64,000 nucleotides of DNA, from positions 192,001 through 256,000 of the forward strand of contig JAVJQW010000046.1 in the NCBI GenBank assembly GCA_040218735.1. The letters run 5' to 3'. Positions 6,019 to 63,372 of the stretch are shown here, piece by piece. Under the pieces are notes generated by a model that saw nothing but the letters and a program-made list of their open reading frames with translations, did not search any database and was not told the DNA's origin. The position numbers were made by a program, and so were the translations under genes. Within the stretch, counting starts at the first letter, position 1; each line of letters begins with the position of its first letter. The stretch is from Deltaproteobacteria bacterium (GTDB taxonomy: Bacteria > Myxococcota > Kuafuiibacteriia > Kuafuiibacteriales > Kuafuiibacteriaceae).

Positions 6019-6070
6019 CTCACGGCCGCGCCCTTGTGTGGGGATTGGCGCCCACGTAGAACGCCGGGCG

Positions 6071-49518: not shown

Positions 49519-51846
49519 CTAGGACGCGCCGAACGTCGCGCCCACGCGCAAGATGAGTTGCCGGCCGGGCTCGTGGGCGTAGTACCGCAGCAGGCTCGTG
49601 TAGTCGCGGTACCGCGCGTTGAGGAGGTTGCTCAGCTCGACGGACGCGTCCCAGTCCACGCCCCCCGCGACGAAGGACACGGCCGCCGACAACCCGAGCA
49701 ACGTGTACGCGTCGGGCGGGGGCGCGAGGTCGATCTTCGCGTCGAAGCCGCCGCGCGAGAAGACGTACGTCGCAGAGGCGGTCGCACTCGCGGAGGTGTC
49801 ACCTTCGAGCAGGTGATACGTCGCGTAGGCCGTGCCGCGGGGGGGCGGGAGGAACGGCACCGACGCCGCGCGTTCGAGGTCGCGCGCGAAGATGGCGGAC
49901 GCGCGCAGGCCCATCTCGACCATCTCCGCGCGGAACGAGCCGTCGAAGTCCGCGCCGCCGAAGAGCACGTTGCGTTGGATGGTCTCGAAGCGAGGGAACA
50001 CCCCGCGGACGAGGACGTCGACGATCGGTTGGCCGTCGGCGTCGAGCGCGGGGGTGAGGCCGATGTAGCCGTCGACGTAGCTCCCGTAGATCGACGCCTC
50101 CGCGCGCAGCGCGTCGCGTCGCAGGACAAACGTCGTCGATGCGCTCCAGCTCGTCTCCGGCGAAGCGTCGGGACGGCCCAGCGCGAGGATCGGAAACGAC
50201 GGGGCAGTACCGTTGATGTACTGCTCGTCGATCGTCGGCATGCGCGACGCCGTCGACAGATCGAGCTTCAACGACGTGAAGTCGTCGAGCCGCAGGAGGC
50301 CGCCCAGCGAGAGTGACGCGGTGTGGAACGTCGACGGACACGCCGCGACGTCGTCGCTCACCGTGCAGTCTTCGGGCGAGAGGCTCCCCCGCGCGACGTG
50401 CCGCTCGTAGGCGTTGTCGCCGAGGTACGCCGTGCGGCGTAGGCCTTCGTACCGCAGCCCGGCCTCCAGCTCGTAGTCGTCGTGGACCCAGCGTTCGACG
50501 GCGAACGCTGCGCCACCCGCCGCGCGGAAGTTCGGAATCAGCGGCAGCCCGTTGAACACGTTGTCCTGCGCGATCGCGAACACCCCCCAGGTGCCGCGCA
50601 GCTCGCTCGAGGGCGTGACCGCCCAGGGGGTGTGCTCGAGCGCGACGTCGACCGTGTGCGTGCGGAGATCGAAGGAGAACTGCGGGCCCTCGATGGAGCG
50701 GCGCACGATGTCGAATTCGTCGCGGAGGTTTCGCTGGAATGCGTAGGTCGCCTCGACGTGCCCGACGTCGGTCTCCGCATCGAACCGCAGCGTACCGACG
50801 TCGTGGGTCACGGCTTGTTTCGGGCGGTCGATTTCGTACGCGACGTCGTATCGTTCGTACCCCTGGGGGCGGTCCCGATTCAGCTGAGCGAGGAAGTCGT
50901 CGTTGGTGTCGTTCTCGACGCAGGTGCAGACGCCGTTCGTCAGATCGTTGTGGCGCAGCGATAGCTCGAGCCCGAACCCCTCGCCTTGGTACTTGGCGCG
51001 CGCGCCGGCGTTCCACTCGAAGACGCCGGTGTTGTCGAGCGGGTAGTCGGGCGTCGACAGCGCAGCGCCGCGGCTGACGTTGCCCTCGATGCGCCAGCTC
51101 AGGGCGTCGAAGTGGTTCCCGTCGACGCGCCCCGCGAACGTACCGCGGCGCCCGTTGAGTGCGCCGACGACGTCCGCGCGCGCTTCGAGGCCCGGCTCCG
51201 TGCGGAGCGCGTGGGGCTCGACGAGCAACACACCCCCGAGCGCGTCGGCCCCGTAGCGCACCGCCGCCGCGCCCTTCACGACGGTGAGCGCACCGGCGGC
51301 GAACGGATCGATCTCCGGTCCGTGGTCGAGGCCCCAGTCCTGGCTCTCGTGCCGCACGCCGTCGAACAGCACCAAGACCCGCGCGCCCGACTGTCCCCGG
51401 ACGATCGGTTTTGCGACCGCGCCGGCGCGGAGCACTTCGACGCCGGACACTTCGGCGAGCGCGTCGGCGAGCGTGCGCCCGCGCGTCCGTGCGAGCGCTT
51501 CACCCTCCAACCGCACCGCGGAGCGGGTGTCCTCTCGCCGCAACGCGGGCGCCGACACCACGACGTCGTCCATGCGCGTGATTCGGTAGGGCTCCAGCGC
51601 CGCGCGGATCGGTGTGGCTCCGTCGGAGCTCACTTGGTGCGGACGGTAGTCCGCGCGTTCGATGATGACGTCCTGTCGTCCGCAGGGGGCGTCGACCGCG
51701 AAGTCTCCACGCACGTCCGTGTTCGTCGAAGTCTCGGCGACGCGAACGCGAGCATCCTCGATCGCTTCGCCGGTCGTCGCGTCCACGACGCGCCCCTCGA
51801 ACGTGCACGCCTGGCTCGCGACGAACAGGAGCCACCACGTGGTCAT
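49519..51846 (-). CDS. TonB-dependent receptor (probable transition-metal uptake)
   Basis: N-terminal carboxypeptidase-regulatory-like domain; plug 'KPIVRG', 'WGLDHGPEIDP', 'YGADALGG'; C-terminal 'NLLN..Y...PGR'; CxC motif. Confidence 0.92.
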   Translation of the reverse strand: MTTWWLLFVASQACTFEGRVVDATTGEAIEDARVRVAETSTNTDVRGDFAVDAPCGRQDVIIERADYRPHQVSSDGATPIRAALEPYRITRMDDVVVSAPALRREDTRSAVRLEGEALARTRGRTLADALAEVSGVEVLRAGAVAKPIVRGQSGARVLVLFDGVRHESQDWGLDHGPEIDPFAAGALTVVKGAAAVRYGADALGGVLLVEPHALRTEPGLEARADVVGALNGRRGTFAGRVDGNHFDALSWRIEGNVSRGAALSTPDYPLDNTGVFEWNAGARAKYQGEGFGLELSLRHNDLTNGVCTCVENDTNDDFLAQLNRDRPQGYERYDVAYEIDRPKQAVTHDVGTLRFDAETDVGHVEATYAFQRNLRDEFDIVRRSIEGPQFSFDLRTHTVDVALEHTPWAVTPSSELRGTWGVFAIAQDNVFNGLPLIPNFRAAGGAAFAVERWVHDDYELEAGLRYEGLRRTAYLGDNAYERHVARGSLSPEDCTVSDDVAACPSTFHTASLSLGGLLRLDDFTSLKLDLSTASRMPTIDEQYINGTAPSFPILALGRPDASPETSWSASTTFVLRRDALRAEASIYGSYVDGYIGLTPALDADGQPIVDVLVRGVFPRFETIQRNVLFGGADFDGSFRAEMVEMGLRASAIFARDLERAASVPFLPPPRGTAYATYHLLEGDTSASATASATYVFSRGGFDAKIDLAPPPDAYTLLGLSAAVSFVAGGVDWDASVELSNLLNARYRDYTSLLRYYAHEPGRQLILRVGATFGAS

Positions 51847-52865
51847 CGTCGTCCCATCGCGTCGAGGAGCGACCGCGCGGCACCTTCGTAACGCGTGCCC
51901 TCCAACGTGCGCGCGAGCTTCGTCGCGCGGTCGAACGTGCCGAGCGCGAAGTGTGCATAGGCCAGGCGATACCGCATGACGGCGCTCTCGAGCGCACCCT
52001 CCGGCAGCACCTCACTCGACGCCACGACGCGCGCGTAGCTCTTCCGGTCGAACAGGATCTCGATACGCTGCGGGTCGCGTTTCGCGGCGTCCTCCACCCG
52101 TGCGTTCCAGCGCAGCGCCGCCTCGTACTCCCCCGTCACGCGGTACTGGTCCGCGGCCTCGAACGCATAGTCGCCGCCGAGCTGCGTCGCGCGCTCGAAG
52201 AGGTGGGCCGCGACGTGGTGCGCCTCCGCGACTCCGTACGCGATCCCGAGGTGCGCCCAGATCTCCGCGTCGTCCTCGAATCGGTGCGCCGCCGTCTCCA
52301 GCATCGGCAGCGCGCGACGTGACCCTTCGAAGACGTGGAACAGCGCGAGGGTCTGCGCGCGGTCGAGCCCGACCTCGACGAGTGTCCGTGCCGTGGCGAT
52401 CGCGTGGTGCTCCAGGCCTAGCGCCATCGCGACGTCCGTTCGCTCCAGCAGGATTCGAGGCTCGTCGCGCTCACTCAGCACTTCGAAGGCCTCCTGCAGC
52501 CGGTCGAGTCGCCGAAGCGCACGCGCCATCAGGAGGGGCTTCGCGACCGCGTCGACGTCCGCCCGCCGCGCGAAGTCGAGCGCGGTCTCCGGCCGATCCG
52601 CCAGGAGCGCGGCGTGGCTCGCGTGGAGGAGGAGCCGAGCGTCTTCGGGGGTCGCTTCGAGCGCGCGCGCGAACGCCGCCGTGGCACCCGCGGCGTCGTC
52701 GCGAGCAAGCAGGAGCACGCCTCGCAAGCGATCTTGCAAGCGGGGGTCGAGCGCTTCGATCGCGGCGGCCGCTTCGTCGAGGTGGCCCGCATCGATCATC
52801 CGCTGGACGTCGTCAGCGGAAGGTGCGGCGGCCGAGAGCAGCGCGATGGCGAGCAGCGCGTTCAT
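51843..52865 (-). CDS. Periplasmic TPR protein (TtpD-like)
   Basis: Signal peptide, helical TPR-like repeats, ATGA overlaps on both sides. Confidence 0.75.
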   Translation of the reverse strand: MNALLAIALLSAAAPSADDVQRMIDAGHLDEAAAAIEALDPRLQDRLRGVLLLARDDAAGATAAFARALEATPEDARLLLHASHAALLADRPETALDFARRADVDAVAKPLLMARALRRLDRLQEAFEVLSERDEPRILLERTDVAMALGLEHHAIATARTLVEVGLDRAQTLALFHVFEGSRRALPMLETAAHRFEDDAEIWAHLGIAYGVAEAHHVAAHLFERATQLGGDYAFEAADQYRVTGEYEAALRWNARVEDAAKRDPQRIEILFDRKSYARVVASSEVLPEGALESAVMRYRLAYAHFALGTFDRATKLARTLEGTRYEGAARSLLDAMGRR

Positions 52866-53512
52866 CGCAACCGGAACACCATCCGTTGTTCGATCGTGCT
52901 GGCGAGCGGCTTGCCGTCGAGCTGCGCGGGTCGGAAGACGTAGCGTCGCACCGCCGCGACGGCGGCGGATTCGAAGACGCCCTCCGGAGTGGCAGAGACG
53001 ACGACCACGTCCACCACGCGTCCGTCCGCGTCCAGCCTCAGCCGCATCACGACCTCCCCCTCGATGCCGCGACGCCGCGCGGCCGACGGGTAACGCGGCG
53101 CGGGCCGACGCACCGCGCGCGCCGGGGTGTCTGGTTCCCCGGGGGGCGAGGCTTCGGGCGCGACGCCGGGGAGCGCGCCGAGGGCGAGCTGAAGACCGCC
53201 GAGGCCCTCGAGCGCCGATCCCATCGCGTGCACCGGGTGCTGCTCTCCGTACTCGGGGATGCGGGCGGGCTCCAGCTGAGGTGCTGGCGCGGCGACCCGC
53301 GCAGCGGGGGCCTGCGGCTCGGGGATCTGCGCGAGGTGTGGCGCCGGAGGGGGGCGAGGCGCGGGCGCGACGGTCACCGGCCCACGACGGACGGCTTCCT
53401 GCTCCGGCGGGTGCGGCGGCGGGGTGTTCACCCACGCGACGAGGACGAGGCTCGCGGCGGTCGTCGCGACGCCGACGAACAACGAGCCACCGCGCCGGAG
53501 GAACCGCATCAC
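52862..53512 (-). CDS. tonB: Energy transducer TonB
   Basis: TM, Pro-rich linker, 'PRYP..ARRRGIEG.V', 'FRPA..DG'. Confidence 0.92.
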   Translation of the reverse strand: MMRFLRRGGSLFVGVATTAASLVLVAWVNTPPPHPPEQEAVRRGPVTVAPAPRPPPAPHLAQIPEPQAPAARVAAPAPQLEPARIPEYGEQHPVHAMGSALEGLGGLQLALGALPGVAPEASPPGEPDTPARAVRRPAPRYPSAARRRGIEGEVVMRLRLDADGRVVDVVVVSATPEGVFESAAVAAVRRYVFRPAQLDGKPLASTIEQRMVFRLR

Positions 53513-53916
53513 TCCTGCTCCACCGACAGCGCAACTTGGCTTGCGCCCGCGAGTCGGCAGTCGTCCATCACGTCTACGAGCGTCGCGGCGTCGACGGCGC
53601 GGTCCGCGACGACGAGCACCGACTTCTCGGCGTAGTGCGAGAGGCGGTCCTTCACCTCGGCCTGGAGTCGCCAGGGACTCGTGGGGCGACCGTCCACCGT
53701 CAGCTCGTGCTGGTCGCGGACGGCGACTCGCACGATCTGGTTAGGGAGCTCGCGCCCCGACGCCGCCGCCGGTCGATCCACGTCGATACCGAGGTCACGC
53801 GCAAACGTCGTCGTGACCACGAAGAAGATCAGGAGGATGAACACGATGTCGATCAGGGGCGCGACGTTGGGTTCGTCCGACGCGGTCGGCCCGCCGCTGA
53901 CTTCGCCGAGCCTCAT
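53509..53916 (-). CDS. exbD: Biopolymer transport protein ExbD
   Basis: 'NVAPLIDIVFILLIFFVV'. Confidence 0.95.
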   Translation of the reverse strand: MRLGEVSGGPTASDEPNVAPLIDIVFILLIFFVVTTTFARDLGIDVDRPAAASGRELPNQIVRVAVRDQHELTVDGRPTSPWRLQAEVKDRLSHYAEKSVLVVADRAVDAATLVDVMDDCRLAGASQVALSVEQE

Positions 53917-54419
53917 CGCGTGCCCCCCCGCAGGAGGAGGGTGCGCGCGCGGTCGAGCTCGGCGGCGAGGCGGAGCTCGCGCCGCTCGAGCAGGCGCGAA
54001 GCGACCAGACCCGGCGCCCCGATGACGAGGCCGAGCTGAGTCGTCACGAGGGCGGTGCTGATACCGCCCGCGACGCTCGACTCCGTCCCGACGGAGCCGC
54101 CGTGTAACGAGCCGAACATCTCGACCATCCCGCCGACGGTGCCGAGGAGGCCCAACAACGGCGCCACCGCCGCCAGGACGCGGAGGACACTCCGATACTG
54201 CGCGAGGCGATCCCGGGCGCGCTCGTGCAGCACGGCCAGGCCGAGCCTTGCGTCACGCGCCTCCGCGACGAACGTCGAGACGACGCCCGAAGGCCCGTGC
54301 GGATCGAGCAGCGCCGACCAGCGCAGCGTGATCGCCGTCCACAGCAGCACCGAAACCGCGACGAGCGCCCAGCTCACCCAGCCCCCTTGCTGCAAGATGA
54401 CTTGCACGCGGTCGATCAC
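53913..54419 (-). CDS. exbB: ExbB proton channel
   Basis: 'APLLGLLGTV.GM', 'GGISTALVTTQLGL'. Confidence 0.9.
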   Translation of the reverse strand: MIDRVQVILQQGGWVSWALVAVSVLLWTAITLRWSALLDPHGPSGVVSTFVAEARDARLGLAVLHERARDRLAQYRSVLRVLAAVAPLLGLLGTVGGMVEMFGSLHGGSVGTESSVAGGISTALVTTQLGLVIGAPGLVASRLLERRELRLAAELDRARTLLLRGGTR

Positions 54420-55633
54420 GACTTCGACCCCTTCAACCGATCCACGACCGCGGTCTCGATGCGGCCGAGGAGCCGGCCCACCGCGCGGTGCAGACCGGTG
54501 TGGAAGAGTAGGGCGGGCACCGCGACCATGAGCCCGAGCTGCGTGGTGAGGAGCGCCTCCGAGATTCCGCCCGATAGGAGGCGAGGGTCTCCGGTGCCGT
54601 GCTCGGTGATGACGGCGAACGTGCCGATCATCCCGGTCACCGTCCCGAGGAGCCCGAGGAGCGGGGCCACCGCAGCGATCAGCGCGAGGAACGAGAGGCC
54701 CCGCAGCAGGCGGGCCTTCAGGCGCAACAGCACATCGACGGCGTCGTCCTCTGCCGTCTCGGCCGGACCGCCGAACACGTCGTGGAGGCGGTCGAGGTGT
54801 TCATCGCCGGTCTTGGCGTCCGGGTTGCGGACAAACGCCGCCGCGGTCGTTCGCCAGCGCAGCAGGTACAGCGAGCGCTCGCCGATCAACACCACGCCGA
54901 TCGCCGCGAGGAGCAACAACGGCCACATGATGAAGCCGCCCGATTCGACCCAGTCGAGCGCGGTCCGCTCCACGTACCGATCGACCGTGGGTGGCTCGCG
55001 GGGATCGAAGAGCACCAGGTTCACACCGCTGATGTCGCCGATCGCCGTCACGTCGTTCGCACGCTCGGGCACCTCGGCCCACGCACCGTCCGCGACTTGC
55101 ACCAGCGGCCGCGCGGGGTGCGTCCAGGTCACGGCTCCCACCGCGCCGATCCGCAACACGTCGGCGCGCTGCGGCGCGCCGGCGGCGTCGAAGTATTCGG
55201 TGTTGGTGTCGAGGTGTACGCGGAAGCGCTGGCGCACGCGGGCCAGCGCGGCGTCGACACGTTCGACGAGCGGAGGCCCGTCACCGATCTGGAGTCCGCG
55301 CGCGTCGGCGTAGGTACGTATCTGCTCGTCGAGCTGCACGAGCTGACGCGCCTGATCCTCGGCGTAGTGCAGACGTTCGTCGTGGGGGAGCGCCTCGGTC
55401 GCCTCGGCGTTTTGGGCGCGCAGCTTCACGAGCTGCTCGGTGAGACGCTCGATGTCGCCGGCCACGGCGTTCTTCGCCGCCTTTGTGTTCTTCTCGGCCC
55501 GTTCGAGCGTCTCCTCCAGCTGCTTCTTCTCGCGCTGGAGGACGTCGATCTCCTGGTCCAGCGCGGACGACAGATCCCCGGCCCACGCCGGGGACGCCGC
55601 ACACAGCACCAGGAGCGCCGGGCCGAGCCTCAC
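54416..55633 (-). CDS. Long ExbB-family protein (TtpC-like) with periplasmic N-terminal domain
   Basis: Signal peptide, coiled coil, C-terminal 'APLLGLLGTVTGMI..F...GDP..LSGGISEAL'; GTG 55633. Confidence 0.88.
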   Translation of the reverse strand: MRLGPALLVLCAASPAWAGDLSSALDQEIDVLQREKKQLEETLERAEKNTKAAKNAVAGDIERLTEQLVKLRAQNAEATEALPHDERLHYAEDQARQLVQLDEQIRTYADARGLQIGDGPPLVERVDAALARVRQRFRVHLDTNTEYFDAAGAPQRADVLRIGAVGAVTWTHPARPLVQVADGAWAEVPERANDVTAIGDISGVNLVLFDPREPPTVDRYVERTALDWVESGGFIMWPLLLLAAIGVVLIGERSLYLLRWRTTAAAFVRNPDAKTGDEHLDRLHDVFGGPAETAEDDAVDVLLRLKARLLRGLSFLALIAAVAPLLGLLGTVTGMIGTFAVITEHGTGDPRLLSGGISEALLTTQLGLMVAVPALLFHTGLHRAVGRLLGRIETAVVDRLKGSKS

Positions 55634-56382
55634 TTCGGAGCCCCCTCGTACACGAGGACGCGCTGGGGCCCCTGCACTCGGTTCGTCTCGAACGCGGCGA
55701 ACAGCGACTCCACGATCACCTTCGCCTCGTCGTCCTCGAGCCATTCGAAGCGCCACCCCGCGTCGCCGTTCGGCCGCGCCCACCCGAGCCGACCGTCGGT
55801 CGCGCGGAAGTACATCAGCGCCATCGAGACGTGCACGACATCGACGAGGCGCCGCTCGCCGCCGATCGAGACCGTCTGCTGTGCGCGCCCCGTCTCACGT
55901 CCGAGCGCCTCCTCCTCTTCGACGAAGCGCCACAACCGGGAGAGCGCCCCCGAGAGATCCGGGTGCTGCCCCTCCAGCTCGCGTTCGATGCGCTGAAGCT
56001 GCTCGAGGCGCTCCACCGCCTTGTAGGGGAGCGACACGTGGACGTGGGCTTTCGCCTTCGCCACCGCTTGGCGGATCGGGTCGCGCCACTTCTCCGTGCC
56101 GTCCTCCAGGCCCATCGCCCGGTCGCGCCGCTCCTGTGCGAGCTGCGCGAGGGTCTGCGATCGGATCTGCTCGAGCCGAAGCTGTCGCTCGAGGTCCGCG
56201 CGCTCCGCGTGGAGCGCCGCGAGATCGTCTTGCGCGCGCCGCCGCTGGTCGCGGAGGCGTTCGGCGATCTCGTCGACCTCGATACGAAGACGGCTCACGC
56301 GGTCCGCCCGATCCCCGGGCGGCGCAGCGTGCGCCGTCGCGCTCGCGAACAACACGAGCGCGACGAACACCACGCGGCGCAT
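55630..56382 (-). CDS. DUF3450 family protein (TtpB-like)
   Basis: Signal peptide, coiled coil, 'LPY...ER', position upstream of the TtpC-like gene. Confidence 0.78.
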   Translation of the reverse strand: MRRVVFVALVLFASATAHAAPPGDRADRVSRLRIEVDEIAERLRDQRRRAQDDLAALHAERADLERQLRLEQIRSQTLAQLAQERRDRAMGLEDGTEKWRDPIRQAVAKAKAHVHVSLPYKAVERLEQLQRIERELEGQHPDLSGALSRLWRFVEEEEALGRETGRAQQTVSIGGERRLVDVVHVSMALMYFRATDGRLGWARPNGDAGWRFEWLEDDEAKVIVESLFAAFETNRVQGPQRVLVYEGAPK

Positions 56383-56384
56383 GG

Positions 56385-56987
56385 CTACTGGACCGTCACG
56401 TCGAACGTGACCGACACGTCGCTGTCCCCGGGCAAGGCAGTGATGCCACCCGACGCCGCGGTGCTCGCGAGATCCGCGACCTTGAGCACCCCGTCTTCGC
56501 TCGGGAGGTGACGCAGCGTCAGCGTCAGCGATCCCGTGCCGGCCCGCTCCGCGACGATCGTGTTGTCGAGGCCGACCGGCAGCCCGTCGTCGTCCATATC
56601 CGCGTAGCTGTGGGTGAGGATCGCGTCCGTGTTGCTCGTCGCGGGGCCGCTCACCGCGTCCCCGGTGAAGAACAGCTGGTGCTCGTCGGCCTCCTCACGG
56701 ACCTCCGCCGTGATGTCCTCGGCCGGAGACTCCAGCCCGTTCTCGAGCTGCACCGTGACCGCGTAGGTGGAGCTGGCCGTCAGCGCGATGCCGTCGATCG
56801 TGGGCGCCGCACCGCCGTCGCCGTCGGGGTCGTTGAAGGTGGCCACGACGCGGTCGACGCCCGCGGTGAACGTGAGGCGTACGATCGTGATGACCTCCTG
56901 TTCGTTGTGGTCGTGCGGATCCGTGACATCGCTTCCGCAGGCAGAGATGAAGAGAGCGGCGGCCGCCGCCGAAATGAGCTTGTGCAT
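56385..56987 (-). CDS. His-containing lipoprotein associated with TonB-dependent receptor
   Basis: SD GGAGGA; lipobox ISAC; 'PHDHNEQEVIT', 'DPDGDGG', 'EEADEHQLFF', 'LRH.P'. Confidence 0.85.
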   Translation of the reverse strand: MHKLISAAAAALFISACGSDVTDPHDHNEQEVITIVRLTFTAGVDRVVATFNDPDGDGGAAPTIDGIALTASSTYAVTVQLENGLESPAEDITAEVREEADEHQLFFTGDAVSGPATSNTDAILTHSYADMDDDGLPVGLDNTIVAERAGTGSLTLTLRHLPSEDGVLKVADLASTAASGGITALPGDSDVSVTFDVTVQ

Positions 56988-57058
56988 AGGTAGTCCTCCG
57001 GCGCACGCACGTCGGCGCGCGCATCACCAAATCGATATCGAGACGTTGTCGCGAGCGA

Positions 57059-57427
57059 TCAGGCGGTTGGAGGTGAGGACTTCGGCGCGAGACGCAGGAG
57101 CGCGATGGGGTGCGCGACCCAGGCCGTGGCCGCTGCCGACGAGCCCAGGTAGGCGACGGTGCCGCTCGAACCCGGCCGCACGTCGTCCTGCGACGCGTCC
57201 ACCGAGAAGTCGGCGACGCAGTGATCCGCGTGCGCCTCCTCGGCCGGCAGCGCCGCCCAGGACGGTACCGCGGGTGTGTCCGCCGCGTGGTCCTGTGCGT
57301 GGATGCGTTCCCCGTGTTCGGGGCAAATCGCGTGTTCGCGCTCCTCGTGAGCCGCCGCGCCGAGCTGCGCGCCCACGAAGAAGGTCATCACCGCGATGGC
57401 GGCGATGCGCTGCGAAACCGATCGCAT
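57059..57427 (-). CDS. His/Cys-rich exported leader protein (DUF2946-like architecture) ending APKSSPP
   Basis: Hydrophobic N-terminus; 8 His, 2 Cys ('HEEREHAICPEHGERIH', 'HADHC'); Pro-Pro C-terminus; start ATG 57427 or GTG 57430. Confidence 0.7.
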   Translation of the reverse strand: MRSVSQRIAAIAVMTFFVGAQLGAAAHEEREHAICPEHGERIHAQDHAADTPAVPSWAALPAEEAHADHCVADFSVDASQDDVRPGSSGTVAYLGSSAAATAWVAHPIALLRLAPKSSPPTA

Positions 57428-57435
57428 CACTCTCA

Positions 57436-57464
57436 CCGGTACGAGCCGTGATGGCCGTTGTCAA
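57436..57464 (-). promoter_or_regulatory. Putative sigma70 promoter of the TonB operon (leaderless)
   Basis: Perfect TTGACA-N17-TACCGG, 8 nt before ATG 57427. Confidence 0.6.
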
Positions 57465-57466
57465 TG

Positions 57467-57847
57467 TTACTCGATGTCGTCGAGGCTGATCGGGAACAGG
57501 TTGCAGCCGTCCGGGGACAGATCGAAGCGCTCGTCGTCCCGCGCGATCACGTCGCCCAGGTCGTCGTAGCCGACGATCAGCACGTACAGCTCCGTGGACT
57601 CCGCGATCGGTGGATCCAGCTCCACGCCGATCGAAGTCATCCCGTCGTCGAGGCCGTCACCGATCGCGTAGGTACGCTTCACCCGCTGGTCCGCCCACTC
57701 GATGGACACCTCGATGTCCGTGACGGTCCCGTCCACGTCATCGTCGACGGTGATCTCCAGCTCGAACGCCGGCGGGTGCTCCCGACACACGTCGAGGTCA
57801 CACGCCGCGAGCGCCCACGAGACCGCGAAGAGCGCGAGCCACCGCAC
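57467..57847 (-). CDS. Hypothetical acidic lipoprotein
   Basis: GTG 57847; lipobox LAAC; two further Cys. Confidence 0.7.
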   Translation of the reverse strand: MRWLALFAVSWALAACDLDVCREHPPAFELEITVDDDVDGTVTDIEVSIEWADQRVKRTYAIGDGLDDGMTSIGVELDPPIAESTELYVLIVGYDDLGDVIARDDERFDLSPDGCNLFPISLDDIE

Positions 57848-57848
57848 G

Positions 57849-58331
57849 TCAGAACCGCTCCCAGTCCCGCGTCGACGTGTTGCCCAACTCACCCTCCGGG
57901 ACGAAGTCACCGCCGCTCGCCAGCACGAATCCCGTCGCGACGACCGCTGCGGCGACCACCCCCGCCAACGCGAGGAACCACGTCCGCGTGATGATCGGCG
58001 CGCCTTGCCCCTCCTGGTCGGTGCGAATGCCGAGCCGCTCCGCCGGGCTGATGCGCGGGATCGCGCGCGGCGTCACGACCGCTTCGATCCGCGAGAACGC
58101 GTCCTTCTCGATCGTCACCCGCGCGACGAACCGGCCGTAGCCGATCTCCTCGACCTCGACCTCGTGCTCCCCCACGGGCAGGCGCAGCGTCGGCATCGGC
58201 GTCCGCCCCACGCGTCGACCGTCCACGCGCACGATCGCGCCCTGCGCGTCCGTCACGACGAGCAGGTAACCGAAGTCGGCGGTTGTCGTGCTGGTCTGCG
58301 CGAGCGCGAGGAGGAGGAGCGCGGGCGTCAC
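57849..58331 (-). CDS. PEGA-domain membrane protein
   Basis: 'GAIVRVDGRRVGRTP...LPVGEHEV'; C-terminal TM. Confidence 0.82.
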   Translation of the reverse strand: MTPALLLLALAQTSTTTADFGYLLVVTDAQGAIVRVDGRRVGRTPMPTLRLPVGEHEVEVEEIGYGRFVARVTIEKDAFSRIEAVVTPRAIPRISPAERLGIRTDQEGQGAPIITRTWFLALAGVVAAAVVATGFVLASGGDFVPEGELGNTSTRDWERF

Positions 58332-58334
58332 GCC

Positions 58335-59213
58335 CTAACGCTTAGCACCCCCACGCTTCGGGAAGAAGCGCGGGTGTTTGATGCTGCCGGTCATCGCGTA
58401 GCTGTAGAACCCGTCGGAACCCTTCGCGCTGCGGATGTTCTGGAGCAACGCGCCGAGCAGCGGCTCCTTCTTCAGGAACGCGTCGGTGGGCTGAAAGCTC
58501 ACGACCAGGTTGAGCACGCTGCGCGAGAAGTCCTTGTTGAGGGTGATCTCACCGTCGAGCTTCACCTCGACGTTCTCACCCTTCATCTCCTGCTTCTCGA
58601 ACAGCAGCTTCCCGTTCTTCACCGGGACCGACCAGTCGAGGTTACCGAGCGCGAGCGCCGGCACCGGGAAGCCGGACACTTTGCCCCCCTCCAGCAGCTC
58701 CAGGCCCGAACCCTTCAGCTCGATGAGCCCCGAGGACTTCTTCACGTCCTCCTTCGACAGCTCCAGGTCGATCTTCGCGTCGACCGTCCCGCTGAGCGGG
58801 AGACCGATCGCGTCCGCCGCGCCGGGCACCAACGCGAGCTCGACGCCCGCGATCGTCGCGTCGACGCTCGTCCCCGAGCTGCCGTCGGAGAAGTCCGCCT
58901 CGACGAGCCCCTTCGCGATCGGGAGCTCGACGTTCGCGCCGACGCCGCCGCTGATCAGCGCCAACACGTGCGCGCGCGCGTCGATCTCCGCCAGCTCGAT
59001 CGGGTCGGGGGACTTCGGCATCTGAATCTTCACGCCTTCCGCGTGCACGCCCGTCACCCAGCTCGGCTCGAGCTTCTTGGCGGTGATGGTGGCGCCGGTC
59101 GCGCGCGAGACCTCCGCGAGCGCTCGCCCCTTCGCGTCCTCCCAGGGGAACGTGAGGTAGAGCGCGCAGAGGAACGCGAAGATGGAGAAGAGGGCATAAC
59201 CGAGATACTTCAC
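58335..59213 (-). CDS. gspN: Type II secretion protein N (myxobacterial type)
   Basis: 'LYLTFPW' N-terminus; position after gspM. Confidence 0.8.
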   Translation of the reverse strand: MKYLGYALFSIFAFLCALYLTFPWEDAKGRALAEVSRATGATITAKKLEPSWVTGVHAEGVKIQMPKSPDPIELAEIDARAHVLALISGGVGANVELPIAKGLVEADFSDGSSGTSVDATIAGVELALVPGAADAIGLPLSGTVDAKIDLELSKEDVKKSSGLIELKGSGLELLEGGKVSGFPVPALALGNLDWSVPVKNGKLLFEKQEMKGENVEVKLDGEITLNKDFSRSVLNLVVSFQPTDAFLKKEPLLGALLQNIRSAKGSDGFYSYAMTGSIKHPRFFPKRGGAKR

Positions 59214-59222
59214 TTCGCGGTC

Positions 59223-59777
59223 CTAGCTCGTCGGCTTGAACGTCCCGACGGTGATCGAGGCGTCCAGTCGCTCCTTGTTGTCGAAGCGTGTCTTGATCTT
59301 GAGGCGGCGCACCTTCACGAGGCGGTTCCCGCGTTCGATCTTCTCGAGGAACGCGTTGAGGCGGTCGAGGCTCACGTTCTTGATGAGGACCTCCGCGCCT
59401 TCCTCCTTCACGAGGTCCGAGCCGGTCGGGTCGCCGGGGCGCTCCGACGCGTTGCCGAGCTCGACCTGCGCCTGCTTGCTGAGGTCTTCGAGGTACGAGA
59501 GGAGGCGCATGTTCTCGTTGCGCCGCACCTCGTCCGCGATGCGCTGCTGGTCGCGCAAGCGTCGCTGGTAGTCCGTCCGGAGGCGCCCGATCTCTTCGAG
59601 CTTCTCCGCCTTGGCGACGATGCGCTTGCGCCGACCGTCGAGGTCCTTGTTCACGAAGTAGCCGCCGAAGCCGAAGATCATCACGAGGATCGCGACGACC
59701 ATGAACAGGACCATGCCCTGCTCGCGGGCTGACAGCCGCTCGAACGCTGCGGTGATCTGTCCGAGTTGCTGTTTCAT
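59223..59777 (-). CDS. gspM: Type II secretion protein M
   Basis: 'LSAREQ' plus TM; ferredoxin-like C-terminal region; TGATG overlap with gspL. Confidence 0.82.
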   Translation of the reverse strand: MKQQLGQITAAFERLSAREQGMVLFMVVAILVMIFGFGGYFVNKDLDGRRKRIVAKAEKLEEIGRLRTDYQRRLRDQQRIADEVRRNENMRLLSYLEDLSKQAQVELGNASERPGDPTGSDLVKEEGAEVLIKNVSLDRLNAFLEKIERGNRLVKVRRLKIKTRFDNKERLDASITVGTFKPTS

Positions 59778-61426
59778 CAGGAGCACCTCAGCTTGATGGA
59801 GAGCTGGAAGTCGACGCCGGCACCGTCACCCTTCTTCGACAGCTTCCCCTTCTTGATGTCGGAGTAACATGAGTTGGCCGAGTACGCGGACACGAGCTTG
59901 TCGACGGCGTCGAAACTCACCGTCGCTCCCGAGATACGCACGCGATCGGGGGTGACTTCCATCTCTTCGAAGGTCACGTCCACGTCCTTCGGCGTGAGCG
60001 ACGACAGCTCCGCGACCACCGCGTAGGCCGAGCGCTCGGGGAGCTTGAATGCCCCCAACTCACTCGCGGGCTCACGCACCACGGAGATGGCGACGGTGGG
60101 TTCGCAGATCTCGCGACCCACGACCTTCTTGGTGATCGAGCAGAACTCCTGGTCGATCTCAGCCTCGCGCGCGCTCACCGTGTGGTACTGCGCGAACACG
60201 TTCACCAGCGTGAGCACCGAGCACACCGCGATGGCTCCCGCGATGAACGGGACCCGGCGCCGCACGTTCTCGAGCGTGCCCGCGAACGCAAACTCACCGA
60301 CACGAAGGTCCATACGCGTCGCGCTGTCCTCCGCGGTCGTTCGAATCGCGTTCGCCAGCGCGAGTGCGTACGCCGGACGGCGCGGACCCTCGACGTTGCG
60401 CTCCACGATCTGCTCCACCGCCACGCCGTTCGCCACCGGCACGTTGAGCTGCTCGGCGAGGTAGTTGGCGAGGTTGCGAATCCGCGCGCCGCCGCCGATG
60501 AGATCGATGCGCGCGACACGCACGCGCTTCTCGCTGCGAATGGCCTGCAGCGTCCGGCGAAGCTCCTTCACGAGCGGACGAAGCCCCGACGCCACGACCT
60601 CGGACATCCGCGCTGCCGCGTCGGACGGGGCGGGGTGTCGCGCGGAGGCGACGAGGGCGTCCTCGTGTTTGCCGTCCTCGGCGTCCTCCCACTCCAGCTC
60701 GTAGGCCTGCGCGATCGCCTGGGTGACGTCGCTGCCGCCCGCGCGAATCACGCGGGTGTACGCGATGCCGTCCTCACCGCATGCGCAGACGAGGGTGCGC
60801 TCGTGTCCGATGTCCACGACCAGCCGCGCGTCCGGCGGTCCGCCGGGCGTGGGCAGGATGAACGTCGACGCTTCGGTCGAGGCCTCCTTCGGAGCCTCGG
60901 CCTTCGATGCGTCGGCCTTGAGGAAGTTCTGGTAGAGGCTGAAGAGCTGGATGACGTCCGCGGGGAGGTACCGCGGGTCGACCTTCGCGCTCTGCAACAG
61001 CGCGAGGTAGTCACTCACCTTGGCGCTCTGCGCCGCGATGCACAGCGACAGCGACGAGCCATCCTCACGCTTGTCGAGGATGGTGTGGTCGTACACGGCG
61101 TCCATGAGATCGAACGGCAGAACGTCGGCGAGCTCGCCGCCGATTGTCAGGTCGACCTTCTTGGGATCGGAGTAGGGGAGCTCGATGAACCGGGTCGTCG
61201 CGTACTCACCGGGCAACGACGCTACCGTGGTGTCGGCGCGCAGCGCGCCGTACTCGAGCAGCAGCTCGAGCGCGGCGACCTGACGCTCCGTCTTGGTGCT
61301 GTCGTCGCCGGCCCCGATCGGGACCTCGTGGACCTCTTCGACCTTGAATCCGCGGAAGCTGGACTCCACCAGCACGGCCTTCGCCGACCACGAACCGATG
61401 TCGATGCCGAGGATGCGTTGCGGCAT
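59777..61426 (-). CDS. gspL: Type II secretion protein L (PilM-like actin-fold domain plus TM)
   Basis: 'ILGIDIGS.S.K', 'VDIGH..T', 'GGGA', TM, periplasmic domain. Confidence 0.85.
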   Translation of the reverse strand: MPQRILGIDIGSWSAKAVLVESSFRGFKVEEVHEVPIGAGDDSTKTERQVAALELLLEYGALRADTTVASLPGEYATTRFIELPYSDPKKVDLTIGGELADVLPFDLMDAVYDHTILDKREDGSSLSLCIAAQSAKVSDYLALLQSAKVDPRYLPADVIQLFSLYQNFLKADASKAEAPKEASTEASTFILPTPGGPPDARLVVDIGHERTLVCACGEDGIAYTRVIRAGGSDVTQAIAQAYELEWEDAEDGKHEDALVASARHPAPSDAAARMSEVVASGLRPLVKELRRTLQAIRSEKRVRVARIDLIGGGARIRNLANYLAEQLNVPVANGVAVEQIVERNVEGPRRPAYALALANAIRTTAEDSATRMDLRVGEFAFAGTLENVRRRVPFIAGAIAVCSVLTLVNVFAQYHTVSAREAEIDQEFCSITKKVVGREICEPTVAISVVREPASELGAFKLPERSAYAVVAELSSLTPKDVDVTFEEMEVTPDRVRISGATVSFDAVDKLVSAYSANSCYSDIKKGKLSKKGDGAGVDFQLSIKLRCS

Positions 61427-61432
61427 GCGTGA

Positions 61433-62695
61433 CTACTCCTCCCGCCAGTACACGATCTCACCCTGCGCGCGGTTGTCGCGCCACACGAGTGTGATCTTCG
61501 AGGACGCGTCGTTGACGCGCCCCACGGCGGTAATCCGAAAGACGTTGGCGGCGTCGTCGAAGCGGATGAACTTCTTGTCCGTCAGCTGCTTCAACTTCGC
61601 GGGGTCGTAGATGATCTGCGCCGTCGTGAGCAGCTGCTGGAAGATCGGCAACGACATCTTGTTCATGGGCGGCGGCAACGCGAGCATCAGGCTCCGCTCC
61701 TGCATGAACTTCTGGAACTTCTCCTCGTCACCGGGCTGCGGCGGCGTCACGGAGATCGCGCGAATGACCGCGCGCAGCATCCACGGGTCGGCGGTGGTCA
61801 TCGAGATGCCCACGCCGTCGCCGCTCCACACCGTGAAGTACCGTGAGAACAGACGCATGAACGCATCGTTCACGCCCGGAATCATGCGCAGCTCGGCGAG
61901 TGAGTTGAACATGCCGTTCTTGGGCTCGTACTGCACGTTGTAGGGGAGGTGGTTGTAACGCGTGTCCTCCGACGCCCCCTGCGTCGTGGTGTCCCCCGTG
62001 ACGATGCAGACCGGGTCGACGAACTCGTTGCCGTCGGTCCAGTCCGTGATGTTCGACATGATGAGGAGCCGGTTGCGAATCGGGTCGCGCGAGTCACCGA
62101 GGTTTTCGAACAACACGTCGTACTTCGGGTCGTCGAACACCGCCGTCATCAGCAGGTGCATGAAGTTCTGACAACCCACACCGAAGTCATCGGTGTTGAT
62201 GTTGATCTTGCGGTTCTCGTCGACCACCTCTTCGACCCAGAACGAGCCCGTGAAGTCACCGAAGGGTTGGTTCAGCGCGTAGCTGTCCTTCACCGCGTCG
62301 TCCTTCGGCGTCGGGTTGCGGTCGAGCAACCCCTTCATCGTGTCCGACGACACCAGGAAGCTCGACAGCTCGAACAACGGAATCGGGATGAACTGCCCGA
62401 GCGTCGACTTGATCTGGCTCTGGAAGCGCAGCACGAACAGCTCCAGCTCGACCGCGCTGCGCGCGTGCAGGTGGGACTGCAGCTCGTCCCGCGCGTTGAC
62501 CGCCGCGGCGAGGTTCACCTGCGACTCGTTCTCCAGGTCCGCCGCGATCGCGCTGAGGATGGTCGTGATGACCATGACCATGATGAGCGCGACGCCGCGT
62601 CGCTCGCGCTTCGGAGCCTGCGTCGGAGCCGCGACGATCGCGCCCCGGCGCGACCGCCGCTTCCTCGTCGGCCGGTAGATGCTCGACCACTTCAT
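61433..62695 (-). CDS. gspK: Type II secretion minor pseudopilin K
   Basis: 'RRG|VALIMV', 'DENRKININ', 'KNG.F.SL.EL..IPG'. Confidence 0.9.
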   Translation of the reverse strand: MKWSSIYRPTRKRRSRRGAIVAAPTQAPKRERRGVALIMVMVITTILSAIAADLENESQVNLAAAVNARDELQSHLHARSAVELELFVLRFQSQIKSTLGQFIPIPLFELSSFLVSSDTMKGLLDRNPTPKDDAVKDSYALNQPFGDFTGSFWVEEVVDENRKININTDDFGVGCQNFMHLLMTAVFDDPKYDVLFENLGDSRDPIRNRLLIMSNITDWTDGNEFVDPVCIVTGDTTTQGASEDTRYNHLPYNVQYEPKNGMFNSLAELRMIPGVNDAFMRLFSRYFTVWSGDGVGISMTTADPWMLRAVIRAISVTPPQPGDEEKFQKFMQERSLMLALPPPMNKMSLPIFQQLLTTAQIIYDPAKLKQLTDKKFIRFDDAANVFRITAVGRVNDASSKITLVWRDNRAQGEIVYWREE

Positions 62696-63372
62696 CAGAT
62701 CGTCCCCAGCTCCCGCGTCAGCGTGATGCGGGTCTTCGTCACGAACTTGAGGGTCTTGCCGTTCTCGTCCTCGATCTCCATCGTGATCTCGACGAACGGC
62801 GGCAGGCGCCCCGCGAACTCTTCGTTCTCGGTGTCCCACTCATCGGTCCAGTCCTCGTCGCGCTCGTCCCAGAACCTCAGTTTGAAGTCGGTGATGTTCT
62901 CCGCGAGGATGTACACACGCCCGCCTTCGTCGGGCTCGCGGTCGATGCGCGGGTCCTCGCGGCGCACGAGGTTGAGCTTCTTCGGGTCGTCCGGATCGCG
63001 CGCGCCGAAGTAGGAGATCTCACACTGGTCGGACTCCTTCGCGTCGGCACGCAGGATGTCGTGCGCGAAGGCCGTGAAGTGAATCTCCTGGAACGGCGAC
63101 CCGGGCTCCGACTTGAAGATCGTCTGCCACATCCGCTCCTGACCCTTGTGCCGCCGCTGCGACGTCAGGAACGCCATCGACAGCTCCTTCGCCATGCGCG
63201 TCATCGCGACGCGCACGTTGTGGTAGCGGCCGTCGATGTCGGTCACCGTCTCGTAGGCGTCGAAGCTGCGCGCGACCGAGCCCCACGTGAGCGTGGCGAT
63301 CACCGCGAGGATCGAGACCGCGAGCGCGACCTCCATGAGCGTGAGCCCCCGAGTGTGTCGTCGGCCGCGCAT
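62695..63372 (-). CDS. gspJ: Type II secretion minor pseudopilin J
   Basis: 'RG|LTLMEV', 'W.DEWD...LP..V.I'. Confidence 0.88.
   Translation of the reverse strand: MRGRRHTRGLTLMEVALAVSILAVIATLTWGSVARSFDAYETVTDIDGRYHNVRVAMTRMAKELSMAFLTSQRRHKGQERMWQTIFKSEPGSPFQEIHFTAFAHDILRADAKESDQCEISYFGARDPDDPKKLNLVRREDPRIDREPDEGGRVYILAENITDFKLRFWDERDEDWTDEWDTENEEFAGRLPPFVEITMEIEDENGKTLKFVTKTRITLTRELGTI

Follow-up and report, generated by a model that had tools for sequence, protein, structure and literature searches.

The window analysed here, a stretch of 64,000 nt, carries on its minus strand a short leader open reading frame (ORF) that stands ahead of a putative metal-uptake operon (Table 1). Through coordinate mapping, the frame described in the sequence-only reading was confirmed at its position, together with its eight His (residues 27, 32, 38, 43, 47, 66, 69 and 106) and two Cys (35 and 70); its C-terminus is LLRLAPKSSPPTA, with the codons AAG TCC TCA CCT CCA. 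Alternative in-frame GTG starts are found at 57436 and 57430, the former giving a protein of 125 aa in the ORF list. The letters of the promoter-like string TTGACA-N17-TACCGG were likewise verified, with TTGACA at 57464-57459, 17 intervening nucleotides, and TACCGG at 57441-57436 of the minus strand. A sigma-70 scan of 56300-58000 returned no site, this string being passed over because TACCGG is a poor -10 element. Judged from these letters, the leader promoter is a weak one, and a leaderless start of the ORF is plausible from the spacing. A k-mer count for a common operator (Zur box) upstream of the leaders gave nothing general, only clade-specific repeats and the TTGAC element. The public runs listed number 22, one of them RNA, which holds 0.08 of the words; the single contig it provides, of 151 nt, lies within the leader ORF (57142-57290) and is uninformative on transcription, ends and level.

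The next gene, with its ATG at 56987, begins 71 nt past the leader stop and encodes a 200-aa lipoprotein. An orthologue of 70% identity follows the leader in another locus, L001, where the gene order of the whole operon is the same. For this lipoprotein, no match was found in a PDB sequence search, and no similarity was detected with the post-leader lipoprotein of Corallococcus (E = 0.34). The receptor that closes the operon showed weak similarity only, confined to the plug, and including ZnuD at 4.7e-6 (NCBIfam, PDB). A scan of the 71-nt spacer found no promoter or terminator pattern; the independent promoter that the earlier reading had named as a possible objection did not appear, no promoter-like site being present there.

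Table 1. Features of the leader and of the putative operon behind it; positions are those of the window.
Feature	Position	Strand	Remarks
TTGACA, -35-like hexamer	57459-57464	minus	TTGAC recurs at a comparable position ahead of most homologous leaders
Leader ORF	57059-57427	minus	122 aa from ATG at 57427; homologues known
N-terminal hydrophobic helix, residues 4-28, after Arg2/Arg7	57344-57418	minus	AlphaFold2 prediction, pLDDT 93-98
Candidate metal-ligand motif 1: H27, H32-x2-C35-P-E-H38-G-E-x2-H43	57299-57349	minus	Predicted small beta-hairpin
Candidate metal-ligand motif 2: H66-x2-H69-C70	57218-57232	minus	C70 invariant, H69 at least 90% (79 sequences)
Arrest-like block IALLRLAPKSSPP, residues 108-120	57068-57106	minus	Conserved across the family
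Rare codons TCA CCT CCA (Ser118, Pro119, Pro120)	57068-57076	minus	Contain CCUCC, 57069-57073
Candidate anti-SD AGUCCUC	57075-57081	minus	Pairs with 56992-56998 in MFE and centroid folds
Leader stop TGA	57059-57061	minus	
71-nt spacer, hairpins predicted within it and closed off by the anti-SD/SD helix	56988-57058	minus	Folding
Shine-Dalgarno (SD) GGAGGACU of the next gene	56992-56999	minus	
First gene of the putative regulated operon, 200-aa lipoprotein, HDH-containing N-terminus	56385-56987	minus	No known family
Rest of operon: DUF3450, long ExbB-like, ExbB, ExbD, TonB, TPR protein, TonB-dependent receptor	49519-56382	minus	Pfam
TonB-dependent receptor	49519-51846	minus	Last of operon; Pfam match

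This arrangement is repeated elsewhere. In each of the 30 loci fetched, the leader heads a same-strand cluster; the spacer to the next gene is 40-212 nt in the 27 loci measured, and later genes often overlap by 4 nt. Linkage to TonB metal-uptake genes, as originally claimed, holds insofar as the leader comes first in uptake clusters, but the usual followers are ZnuA (PF01297) and ABC-3 together with a porin-like protein (22 loci of 30), against four with TonB-dependent receptors. The remainder comprises one locus with the same TonB operon, two with a His-rich lipoprotein cluster and one unassigned. The metal sensed is probably zinc, to go by neighbour genes whose best NCBIfam matches are far below threshold (AztC at 86.9 bits against a cut-off of 350, MntC second).

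The leader ORF is a real and conserved gene, beyond chance. Its family is present in 207 of 401 sampled genomes of Myxococcota, often in two copies per genome ahead of different uptake systems. The protein matches no Pfam or NCBIfam model above threshold and the family is without annotation; in Myxococcus and Corallococcus its members are labelled 'hypothetical protein' only. A hydrophobic segment preceded by a basic stretch occurs in 31 of 31 leaders, and the helix modelled in the window protein may act as a signal anchor or signal peptide. Behind it, the family consensus reads HxxC[PA]EHGExxH and HxHC. Across 79 sequences, H32, C35, H38 and G39 of the first motif are invariant and H27 and H43 reach at least 90%, and AlphaFold2 places the strands of the hairpin at residues 32-34 and 41-43. 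The distance from Cys to Cys varies between 32 and 56; the second Cys and the last Pro stand 50 residues apart in the window protein and 49-56 apart across 76 members of the family. Two other identities were dismissed by eye: a MYXO-CTERM-type sorting signal, the leader having no C-terminal hydrophobic segment, and a RiPP precursor, with no modification genes close by.

The family block at the end of the protein is [IVL]AL[LYF]RLAPKxSPP, followed by 1-6 variable residues before the stop. The pattern P[KR]x[ST]PP is matched by 79 of 82 family proteins, and A, P, K, S, P and P each occur in at least 80 of 81. When one substitution is allowed the count rises to 81 of 82, with the motif 1-6 residues from the stop, bearing out the conserved C-terminal motif predicted by the sequence-only reading. 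Information content climbs from about 1 bit per position in the preceding 35 residues to 2.5-4.3 bits over the last 11 (81 proteins), and the two natural strain differences that fall within the motif codons are both synonymous. The C-proximal APKxSPP block would thus appear to be under selection at the level of the peptide. Against arrest at this block, xSPP is neither RAPP nor RGPP, and Ser-Pro-Pro is not known to rank with the strongest stallers that depend on EF-P.

The codons of this block are unusual as well. The run of A/T-ending codons at SPP was confirmed and lies beyond chance when compared with ten neighbouring genes, where TCA, CCT and CCA account for 1%, 6% and 4% of the Ser/Pro codons. 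Selection also seems to act at the nucleotide level: in a set of 43 leaders left after deduplication at 80% identity, A/T-ending codons were observed 18 times at the Ser of SPP (4.6 expected) and 27 times at the first Pro of PP (5.7 expected), and at the Pro of APK only twice, with 5.7 expected. The enrichment at Ser and first Pro creates CUCC, and CTCC is found in 32 of the 43 leaders, compared with an expectation of 12.1. The rare codons could, however, serve slow decoding instead of pairing.

Pairing between leader end and SD was evaluated across the family, with downstream starts picked by eye; automatic prediction was unreliable in about one-third of the loci. Leader ends pair with their own ribosome-binding site (RBS) at -14.6 kcal/mol and with swapped sites at -12.1 kcal/mol (permutation p = 1e-4, n = 21), while control segments 30-120 nt upstream gave p = 0.15-0.82 and a control shift of 150 nt also gave p = 0.014; these p-values are overstated because kin are not independent. 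Leader ends belong to the best 10% of synonymous recodings in 14 of 27 loci; counted by lineage, the recoding test is above 0.2 in 10 of 21, and the terminal window is within the best 10% in only 7 of 21. For 11 of 27 loci, the window's among them, the ensemble fold has the leader end paired with at least 6.4 of the 13 SD-zone bases. In a clade of seven loci, the RNAalifold consensus closes on CCUCC:GGAGG, and the covariation anticipated for this anti-SD/SD helix failed to appear there: no compensatory changes are found, the helix being either invariant or broken. Elsewhere, variant SDs accompany variant codons, with CCA-CC facing GGUGG in L026 and CUCCAC facing GUGGAG in L001. Family-wide codon and pairing statistics support an anti-SD that is built into the SPP codons.

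Within the window, the 7-nt complement across the 71-nt spacer exists as described (AGUCCUC, 57081-57075, matches GAGGACU, 56998-56992), but taken alone this pairing does not exceed chance. A complement of at least 7 nt that matches the RBS zone perfectly arises in 13% of synonymous recodings of the last nine codons; along the leader ORF, 19 of 113 windows contain one. The duplex energy corresponds to the 50th percentile of synonymous recodings. The local fold has z = -1.0, with 29 of 200 shuffles folding equally well, and the leader end ranks at 0.62 among sliding windows; it engages 7.2 of 13 SD-zone bases in the ensemble fold. In a variant strain, G57080 is replaced by A on the minus strand (AAG to AAA), which weakens the outer pair of the 7-bp helix, and no compensating change is found at the SD. 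An Rfam scan of five loci including the window returned no family, only two chance microRNA-like matches elsewhere. The claim that the leader end masks the SD has support from the family-wide codon and pairing statistics, not from the window's own helix, which is not significant by itself.

On these grounds we lean, without much assurance, towards reading the ORF as a cis-acting regulatory leader of the CutF/CruR kind, which combines arrest, SD unmasking and release by metal. What the data show is conservation across the family, a fixed spacing, a recurring gene order, biased codon use and complementary RNA; stalling, the identity of the metal, the direction in which the system responds, and an output by SD unmasking and not by Rho-dependent termination are what we infer. 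The leader would be translated as the first cistron, with its N-terminal helix directing the nascent protein to the membrane, and the ribosome would pause or arrest once LxRLAPKxSPP occupies the exit tunnel and the P and A sites hold the two Pro codons. When no ribosome is stalled, the CUCC/CCUCC of the SPP codons would pair with the following gene's Shine-Dalgarno; with a ribosome held at SPP, the downstream RBS would stay open, enabling translation of the metal-uptake operon. The His/Cys motifs, at a constant distance of about 46 residues upstream of xSPP, would bind metal on the nascent chain, most likely Zn(II), and binding would alter the dwell time of the ribosome. For an uptake system, it would be expected that metal releases the arrest, the helix refolds and the operon is shut off, as proposed for CruR. 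The computational tests that the sequence-only reading had named as able to refute it all turned out in its favour. Its model is, as a whole, partly supported.

The leader could instead be an accessory part of metal import, namely a membrane-anchored periplasmic Zn-binding metallochaperone or adaptor in which APKxSPP docks a partner and the RNA only couples translation. It would explain why the His/Cys ligands and the membrane helix, including a Gln-Leu, are conserved and why the leader always adjoins uptake genes; in addition, proline-rich tails can be interaction motifs, as was first proposed for CutF (PMC8456105, in part). However, the partners next door vary between ABC importer, TonB-dependent receptor and TonB complex, and therefore no common encoded docking partner is evident. 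The 1-6 variable residues after the motif mean that APKxSPP is not at a free C-terminus, the peptide spacer of about 45 residues is unconserved in sequence and kept in length, and the AlphaFold2 model consists of the membrane helix, the small beta-hairpin and mostly coil. A docking motif would not predict rare codons exactly at Ser and Pro, and the leader invariably opens the cluster, with 40 nt or more before the next gene. We regard this explanation as unlikely, though worth keeping in mind.

A regulatory leader might also have a transcriptional output, where the ribosome at SPP blocks Rho loading and termination in the spacer, as in CruR with its 162-nt spacer (PMC9426467, in part). The Myxococcaceae copy fits such a scheme: its spacer of about 275 nt is conserved, contains C-rich stretches and is ill suited to simple SD masking, and the downstream mechanism may therefore differ there. 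Furthermore, in several loci the ensemble folds lack pairing between leader end and SD. Against it stand the window spacer, which has just 71 nt and folds into GC-rich hairpins, and the family-level data, which favour a leader end paired to its own RBS; as a general account it is improbable. Plain translational coupling, in which the terminating ribosome melts the helix with neither arrest nor metal sensing and the peptide serves an unrelated purpose, agrees with the window's unremarkable structure and with an anti-SD lying 3-20 nt from the leader stop, which a terminating ribosome would therefore cover too, but it leaves the 11-residue block, the fixed Cys-to-PP spacing, the His/Cys motifs and the exclusive link to metal-uptake operons unexplained, and we give it very little credence.

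To our knowledge, metal-sensing nascent peptides have so far been established for copper alone (CruR, CutF). The preferred reading of the ORF as a regulatory leader carries a further, tentative claim, which we would not yet bet on: that this is the first zinc-responsive arrest peptide, with the new motif L-x-R-L-A-P-K-x-S-P-P, gating unrelated zinc importers of Myxococcota through arrest codons that are also the anti-SD. If true, the systems gated would comprise ZnuABC with a porin, TonB-dependent receptors and a TonB-ExbBD energiser, and the metal-sensing nascent-peptide principle would extend to zinc uptake and to another phylum. It would add an arrest motif invisible to searches based on RAPP/RGPP and would offer a natural example of peptide and RNA constraints overlapping on the same codons, one 9-nt stretch being selected as both. 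Uncharacterised neighbours are also flagged as candidate components of zinc import, namely a porin-like barrel, His-rich lipoproteins and the 200-aa lipoprotein of the window. Because myxobacteria that carry the family (Myxococcus, Corallococcus) can be cultured and are genetically tractable, the model lends itself to direct testing.

Among known systems, the closest is CruR, the Bordetella pertussis protein Bp2923 (DUF2946, PF11162), which acts via Rho-dependent termination and in which the Cys motif and the Pro-Pro motif are separated by 45 residues, within 1-2 (PMC9426467, in part). Arrest at its RAPP was demonstrated in vitro, and its structure is described much like the helix, hairpin and coil modelled here. 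Both are small exported proteins, predicted to be poorly structured, that come first in a metal-uptake operon which includes a TonB-dependent transporter; in both, a Cys motif lies at a set distance from a C-proximal Pro-Pro (45 in CruR, 46 in the window, 45-52 in the family) and metal is expected to relieve arrest, as suits uptake. In contrast, the family has LAPKxSPP where CruR has RAPP, ligands of the type HxxCPEHGExxH and HxHC with single, separated Cys where CruR has CXXC, and neighbours suggesting zinc instead of copper; the window's 71-nt spacer has predicted SD pairing, whereas CruR employs 162 nt and Rho. With PF11162 (gathering score 23.7 bits), the window protein gave no match at E <= 1, nor did a model search of its own genome, and none was seen at the leaders of five family-bearing genomes. 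Nevertheless, 29 of 79 relatives match at E <= 1 over most of the model, all below threshold (best 2.7e-5; 12.6-17 bits in five seen individually), and one UniRef name and one Atlas cluster name for the family read 'DUF2946 domain-containing'. The CruR-like features noted at the outset are thus real, but 'analogous' is too weak a word for what looks like a remote, sub-threshold relative of DUF2946.

CutF of Rhodobacter capsulatus is a copper detoxification switch in which metal induces stalling, combining an SD-shielding stem-loop with Cu-dependent stalling at PPP (PMC9973294; bioRxiv 10.1101/2025.02.05.636593). CutF-like proteins are defined as shorter than 150 aa, with PP among their final 15 residues and an export signal at the N-terminus, and as followed on the same strand by a gene within 1000 nt (PMC9973294); the window protein has all four traits (122 aa, PP at 119-120, helix 4-28, next gene at 71 nt). 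A stem-loop that shields the SD, proposed to be melted by the stalled ribosome, is predicted in the window too; it is at chance level there and has support across the family. CutF differs in having CxxxC and PEPEGPPPRL, and here the anti-SD sits inside the arrest codons themselves. The CutF-like collection (29 clusters) includes His-only clusters beside Ni/Co genes, and the words zinc, ZnuA and Myxococcota have no occurrence in the main text of that paper (PMC9973294, in part). The RAPP/RGPP arrest peptides, which stand upstream of Sec, YidC and metal genes (PMC12992588), share with the family the C-proximal X-X-P-P, the N-terminal localisation signal, the location ahead of genes for TonB-dependent receptors or for other parts of metal homeostasis and the conserved Cys/His proposed as metal sensors; the family's K-x-S-P-P (KSSPP in the window) differs in that its basic residue stands one position more distant from PP and in that Ser replaces Ala/Gly. 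SecM, MifM and VemP are set apart by their downstream genes, which belong to the protein-localisation machinery, whereas the leader precedes a lipoprotein, DUF3450, ExbB/ExbD/TonB and a receptor in the window, and ZnuA/ABC-3 elsewhere.

The leader gene belongs to a family that is real, widespread and unannotated. Ten relatives were recovered among 44 candidates by a word-indexed search, 75 cluster representatives at E <= 0.001 by an exhaustive phmmer search, and a profile of 79 sequences detected it in 207 of the 401 genomes sampled from the phylum and in 78 of 154 genera (206 of 400 without one unpublished genome, G195, on which no other result depends). In one family within the phylum it occurs in 145 of 172 genomes, usually in two copies per genome; the window's own genome has a single copy. 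Named hosts include Corallococcus, Myxococcus, Pyxidicoccus and Archangium. A second protein search returned 93 matches, many unnamed, the named ones being nearly all "hypothetical protein" with one UniRef name of "DUF2946 domain-containing", and precomputed Pfam domains were found on 0 of the 93.

These proteins share a basic N-terminus, then a hydrophobic helix that spans residues 4-28 in the AlphaFold2 model of the window protein (pLDDT > 90) and is directly followed by a conserved His. Next comes the motif H-x2-C-[PA]-E-H-G-E-x2-H, a predicted small beta-hairpin, and, after a variable stretch, H-x-H-C. About 45 residues of predicted coil, at ~1 bit per position, lead to the end block [IVL]-A-L-[LYF]-R-L-A-P-K-x-S-P-P, at 2.5-4.3 bits per position. 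The conservation expected by the sequence-only reading is borne out, with P[KR]x[ST]PP in 79 of 82 homologues (81 if one substitution is allowed, the lone exception looking truncated). Between Pro-Pro and the stop lie 1-6 variable residues, tails of 1, 2, 3, 4, 5 and 6 occurring in 34, 20, 15, 7, 2 and 3 of 81 proteins. The second Cys stands 49-56 residues from the last Pro (median 52; 76 proteins), and the Cys-to-Cys distance varies from 32 to 56.

The codons of the end block carry a signal of their own. The window leader ends LLRLAPKSSPPTA, encoded AAG TCC TCA CCT CCA, and its TCA-CCT-CCA run is unusual: these make up 1%, 6% and 4% of the Ser/Pro codons in the ten surrounding genes. Among 43 leaders (those > 80% identical over the last 80 residues dropped; expectation from each locus's own codon usage), A/T-ending codons number 18 against 4.6 expected at the invariant Ser and 27 against 5.7 at the first Pro of Pro-Pro, compared with 2 against 5.7 at the Pro of A-P-K and 4 against 3.2 at the Lys. 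The nominal p values (1e-7 to 1e-13) are overstated, since relatives have codons in common. Different lineages reach the same outcome with TCG-CCT-CCC, TCT-CCG-CCT or TCT-CCA-CCC, and CTCC, a tetramer complementary to GGAG, occurs in 32 of the 43 leaders against 12.1 expected. Near-identical DNA on contigs of two metagenome runs differs from the window at three sites in 56900-57520: two synonymous changes in motif codons (AAG to AAA, CCA to CCG) and, in the variable protein spacer, a missense change. The AAG-to-AAA change costs one pair of the 7-bp helix, with the SD unchanged.

In the window alone, this 7-nt complement is not unusual. When the last nine codons are recoded synonymously, 13% of the variants have a perfect complement of at least 7 nt to the RBS zone, as do 19 of 113 windows along the leader ORF. 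The AGUCCUC/GAGGACU hairpin that had been claimed appears in both the MFE and centroid folds, but its complementarity and energy lie within chance there, the fold being ordinary (z = -1.0; 29 of 200 shuffles as good). Across the family, with downstream starts chosen by eye ahead of all pairing computations, own leader-end/RBS pairs average -14.6 versus -12.1 kcal/mol for swapped ones (n = 21, one member of a 7-locus clade retained; permutation p = 1e-4). Segments 30, 60, 90 and 120 nt upstream give p = 0.15-0.82, and those at 150 nt p = 0.014. The duplex falls in the best 10% of synonymous recodings at 14 of 27 loci (window at 0.50), the leader-terminal window in the best 10% of its own ORF's windows in 7 of 21 lineages (window locus rank 0.62), and at least 6.4 of 13 SD-zone bases are paired with the leader end in ensemble folds of 11 of 27 loci (window 7.2).

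For the 7-locus clade (L003, L009, L010, L012, L015, L017, L021), the RNAalifold consensus is closed by a 10-pair helix joining the x-S-P-P codons to GGAGG-A-CGAGU. This predicted anti-SD/SD helix is invariant or broken and shows no compensatory changes; such changes were found only in inner hairpins. Between clades, SD variants match codon variants, CCA-CC pairing with GGUGG (locus L026) and CUCCAC with GUGGAG (L001, the closest relative with the window's operon). The clade also has a common ~110-nt spacer in which two hairpins are conserved, among them a 9-bp stem where G-C is replaced by A-U and by G-U; an Rfam search of one member, L003, matched no family.

Loci fetched from species-representative genomes number 30, and in each of them a same-strand cluster follows the leader gene. 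Linkage to an uptake cluster stands, but the TonB partnership first proposed is the minor form. In 22 loci the cluster encodes a barrel (its porin-like identity being a lead from a protein atlas only), a ZnuA-family binding protein (PF01297, 1.2e-43), an ABC-3 permease and sometimes an ABC ATPase, versus TonB-dependent receptors in four, the window's TonB operon in one (L001) and a His-rich lipoprotein cluster in two (Corallococcus); in one, the contig ends before the cluster can be assigned. The best NCBIfam names for binding protein and permease are AztC and AztB, zinc proteins, both far under cut-offs and with MntC second. In one importer locus, L028, the gene call is weak and the permease lies > 1.3 kb off. 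At L030, one of the four receptor loci, two Fur-family regulator genes (PerR/Fur/Zur-like, under cut-offs) flank the leader, one on each side (5008-6482), with a TonB-dependent receptor next. In Corallococcus (L029, ~6600-7095) and at L008 the leader is directly followed by a small lipoprotein with Cys-Glu-His-[LM]-x-[KD]-Gly-Pro and a His/Asp-rich C-terminus, matching no known family and without similarity to the window's 200-aa lipoprotein. At L025 a tandem hexanucleotide repeat (~10 copies) lies ~100-200 nt upstream of the leader, and an 8-nt inverted repeat with a 9-nt gap overlaps its TTGACA element.

On re-reading the window, the promoter-like elements, His and Cys counts (8 and 2), ending, codons, complement and spacer described earlier all proved correct. 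TACCGG is a poor -10, and the promoter-to-ATG spacing fits a candidate leaderless start. A TTGAC element stands shortly upstream of most leaders in the family, which fits the leader as first cistron. A promoter within the spacer had been named as evidence against the model; a sigma-70 scan of 56300-58000, spacer included, found none. G+C of the leader region is 62-78%. The first downstream gene, the lipoprotein, matches no known family, and the operon order from DUF3450 onwards appears to resemble that of the Vibrio TonB2-type system.

Features of the window around the leader gene
Feature	Position	Strand	Remark
ORF run upstream of leader	57849-63980	minus	by eye from translations, like type II secretion/pilus-assembly cluster with PEGA-like protein
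147-aa ORF	57467-57910	minus	leader directly after; ends 3 nt before TTGACA
TTGACA	57464-57459	minus	then 17 nt, then TACCGG
Leader ORF	ATG 57427 to TGA 57059-57061	minus	122 aa; 125 aa if GTG at 57436
Metatranscriptome contig, 151 nt	57142-57290		inside leader ORF, zero differences; mixed sample, shows neither transcription nor transcript ends
AGUCCUC	57081-57075	minus	complement of GAGGACU 56998-56992
Spacer, leader to next ATG	ATG 56987	minus	71 nt
Downstream genes in order		minus	200-aa lipoprotein, DUF3450, long ExbB-like, ExbB, ExbD, TonB, TPR protein, TonB-dependent receptor
Operon part, DUF3450 to receptor	49519-56382	minus
455-aa ORF	54416-55783		overlaps DUF3450 ORF by ~150 nt; L001 orthologue called at 404 aa; true start probably further downstream

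For the window ORF, a leader that unmasks the SD through ribosome dwell appears to us slightly favoured; conservation, spacing, context, codon bias and complementarity are its observed parts. The leader would be translated first and inserted through its helix, and the ribosome would dwell on Pro-Pro with the conserved block inside the tunnel. Held there, it would keep the CUCC-containing codons off the SD, and the first uptake gene would be initiated. Metal on the His/Cys motifs, which at arrest would lie ~50 and ~85 residues from the peptidyl-transferase centre, would alter the dwell time; by importer logic, the expected outcome of binding would be release and shut-off. That the protein is an ordinary metal-binding accessory whose tail serves for docking is an unlikely reading, to which we give about one chance in five. 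Rho-dependent termination as the output of the same leader is less probable still for the window, and likelier for the second paralogue of the Myxococcaceae (L045, L047, L053, L055, L057-L060). There, a conserved ~275-nt spacer with C-rich stretches, followed by a lipoprotein gene, and an inverted repeat around the putative -35 suggest a different read-out, possibly Rho-dependent, plus an operator. The spacer measures 40-212 nt in the 27 loci with a placeable next start codon, 4-nt overlaps being frequent between genes further along these operons. Plain translational coupling is very improbable. At the level of sequence comparison, the arrest-leader model came through every comparative test proposed with it, corrected as to partner genes, DUF2946 kinship and the window helix.

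Among known systems, DUF2946 comprises small exported proteins that carry CXXC and, close to the C-terminus, RAPP (PMC9426467). Bordetella CruR is arrested at RAPP (PMC9426467; PMC12992588), and copper relieves the arrest, leading to Rho termination ahead of a TonB-dependent transporter gene (PMC9426467). Copper-bound CutF of Rhodobacter capsulatus stalls at PPP, melting the stem-loop over the cutO SD, and rules define 5,334 CutF-like proteins in 29 clusters, some with His-only motifs beside Ni/Co genes (PMC9973294). By analogy, stalling, a metal signal and a direction of response would be expected here. The literature search found no link of zinc uptake or myxobacteria with either DUF2946-like leaders or arrest peptides, and zinc, ZnuA and Myxococc do not occur in the main text of the CutF paper, the part checked, its cluster lists being in supplements (PMC9973294). 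The window protein falls within the CutF-like rules as that paper describes them (PMC9973294), but outside DUF2946 on profile score, CXXC and RAPP. Weak full-length PF11162 matches in 29 of 79 relatives suggest a remote common ancestry with DUF2946, and the ruler is alike, with 45 intervening residues in CruR against 46 in the window protein by the same counting (PMC9426467). For the family as a whole, the best reading is a variant of the metal-sensing leader peptides of the CutF/CruR class, zinc-linked and with a motif other than RAPP.
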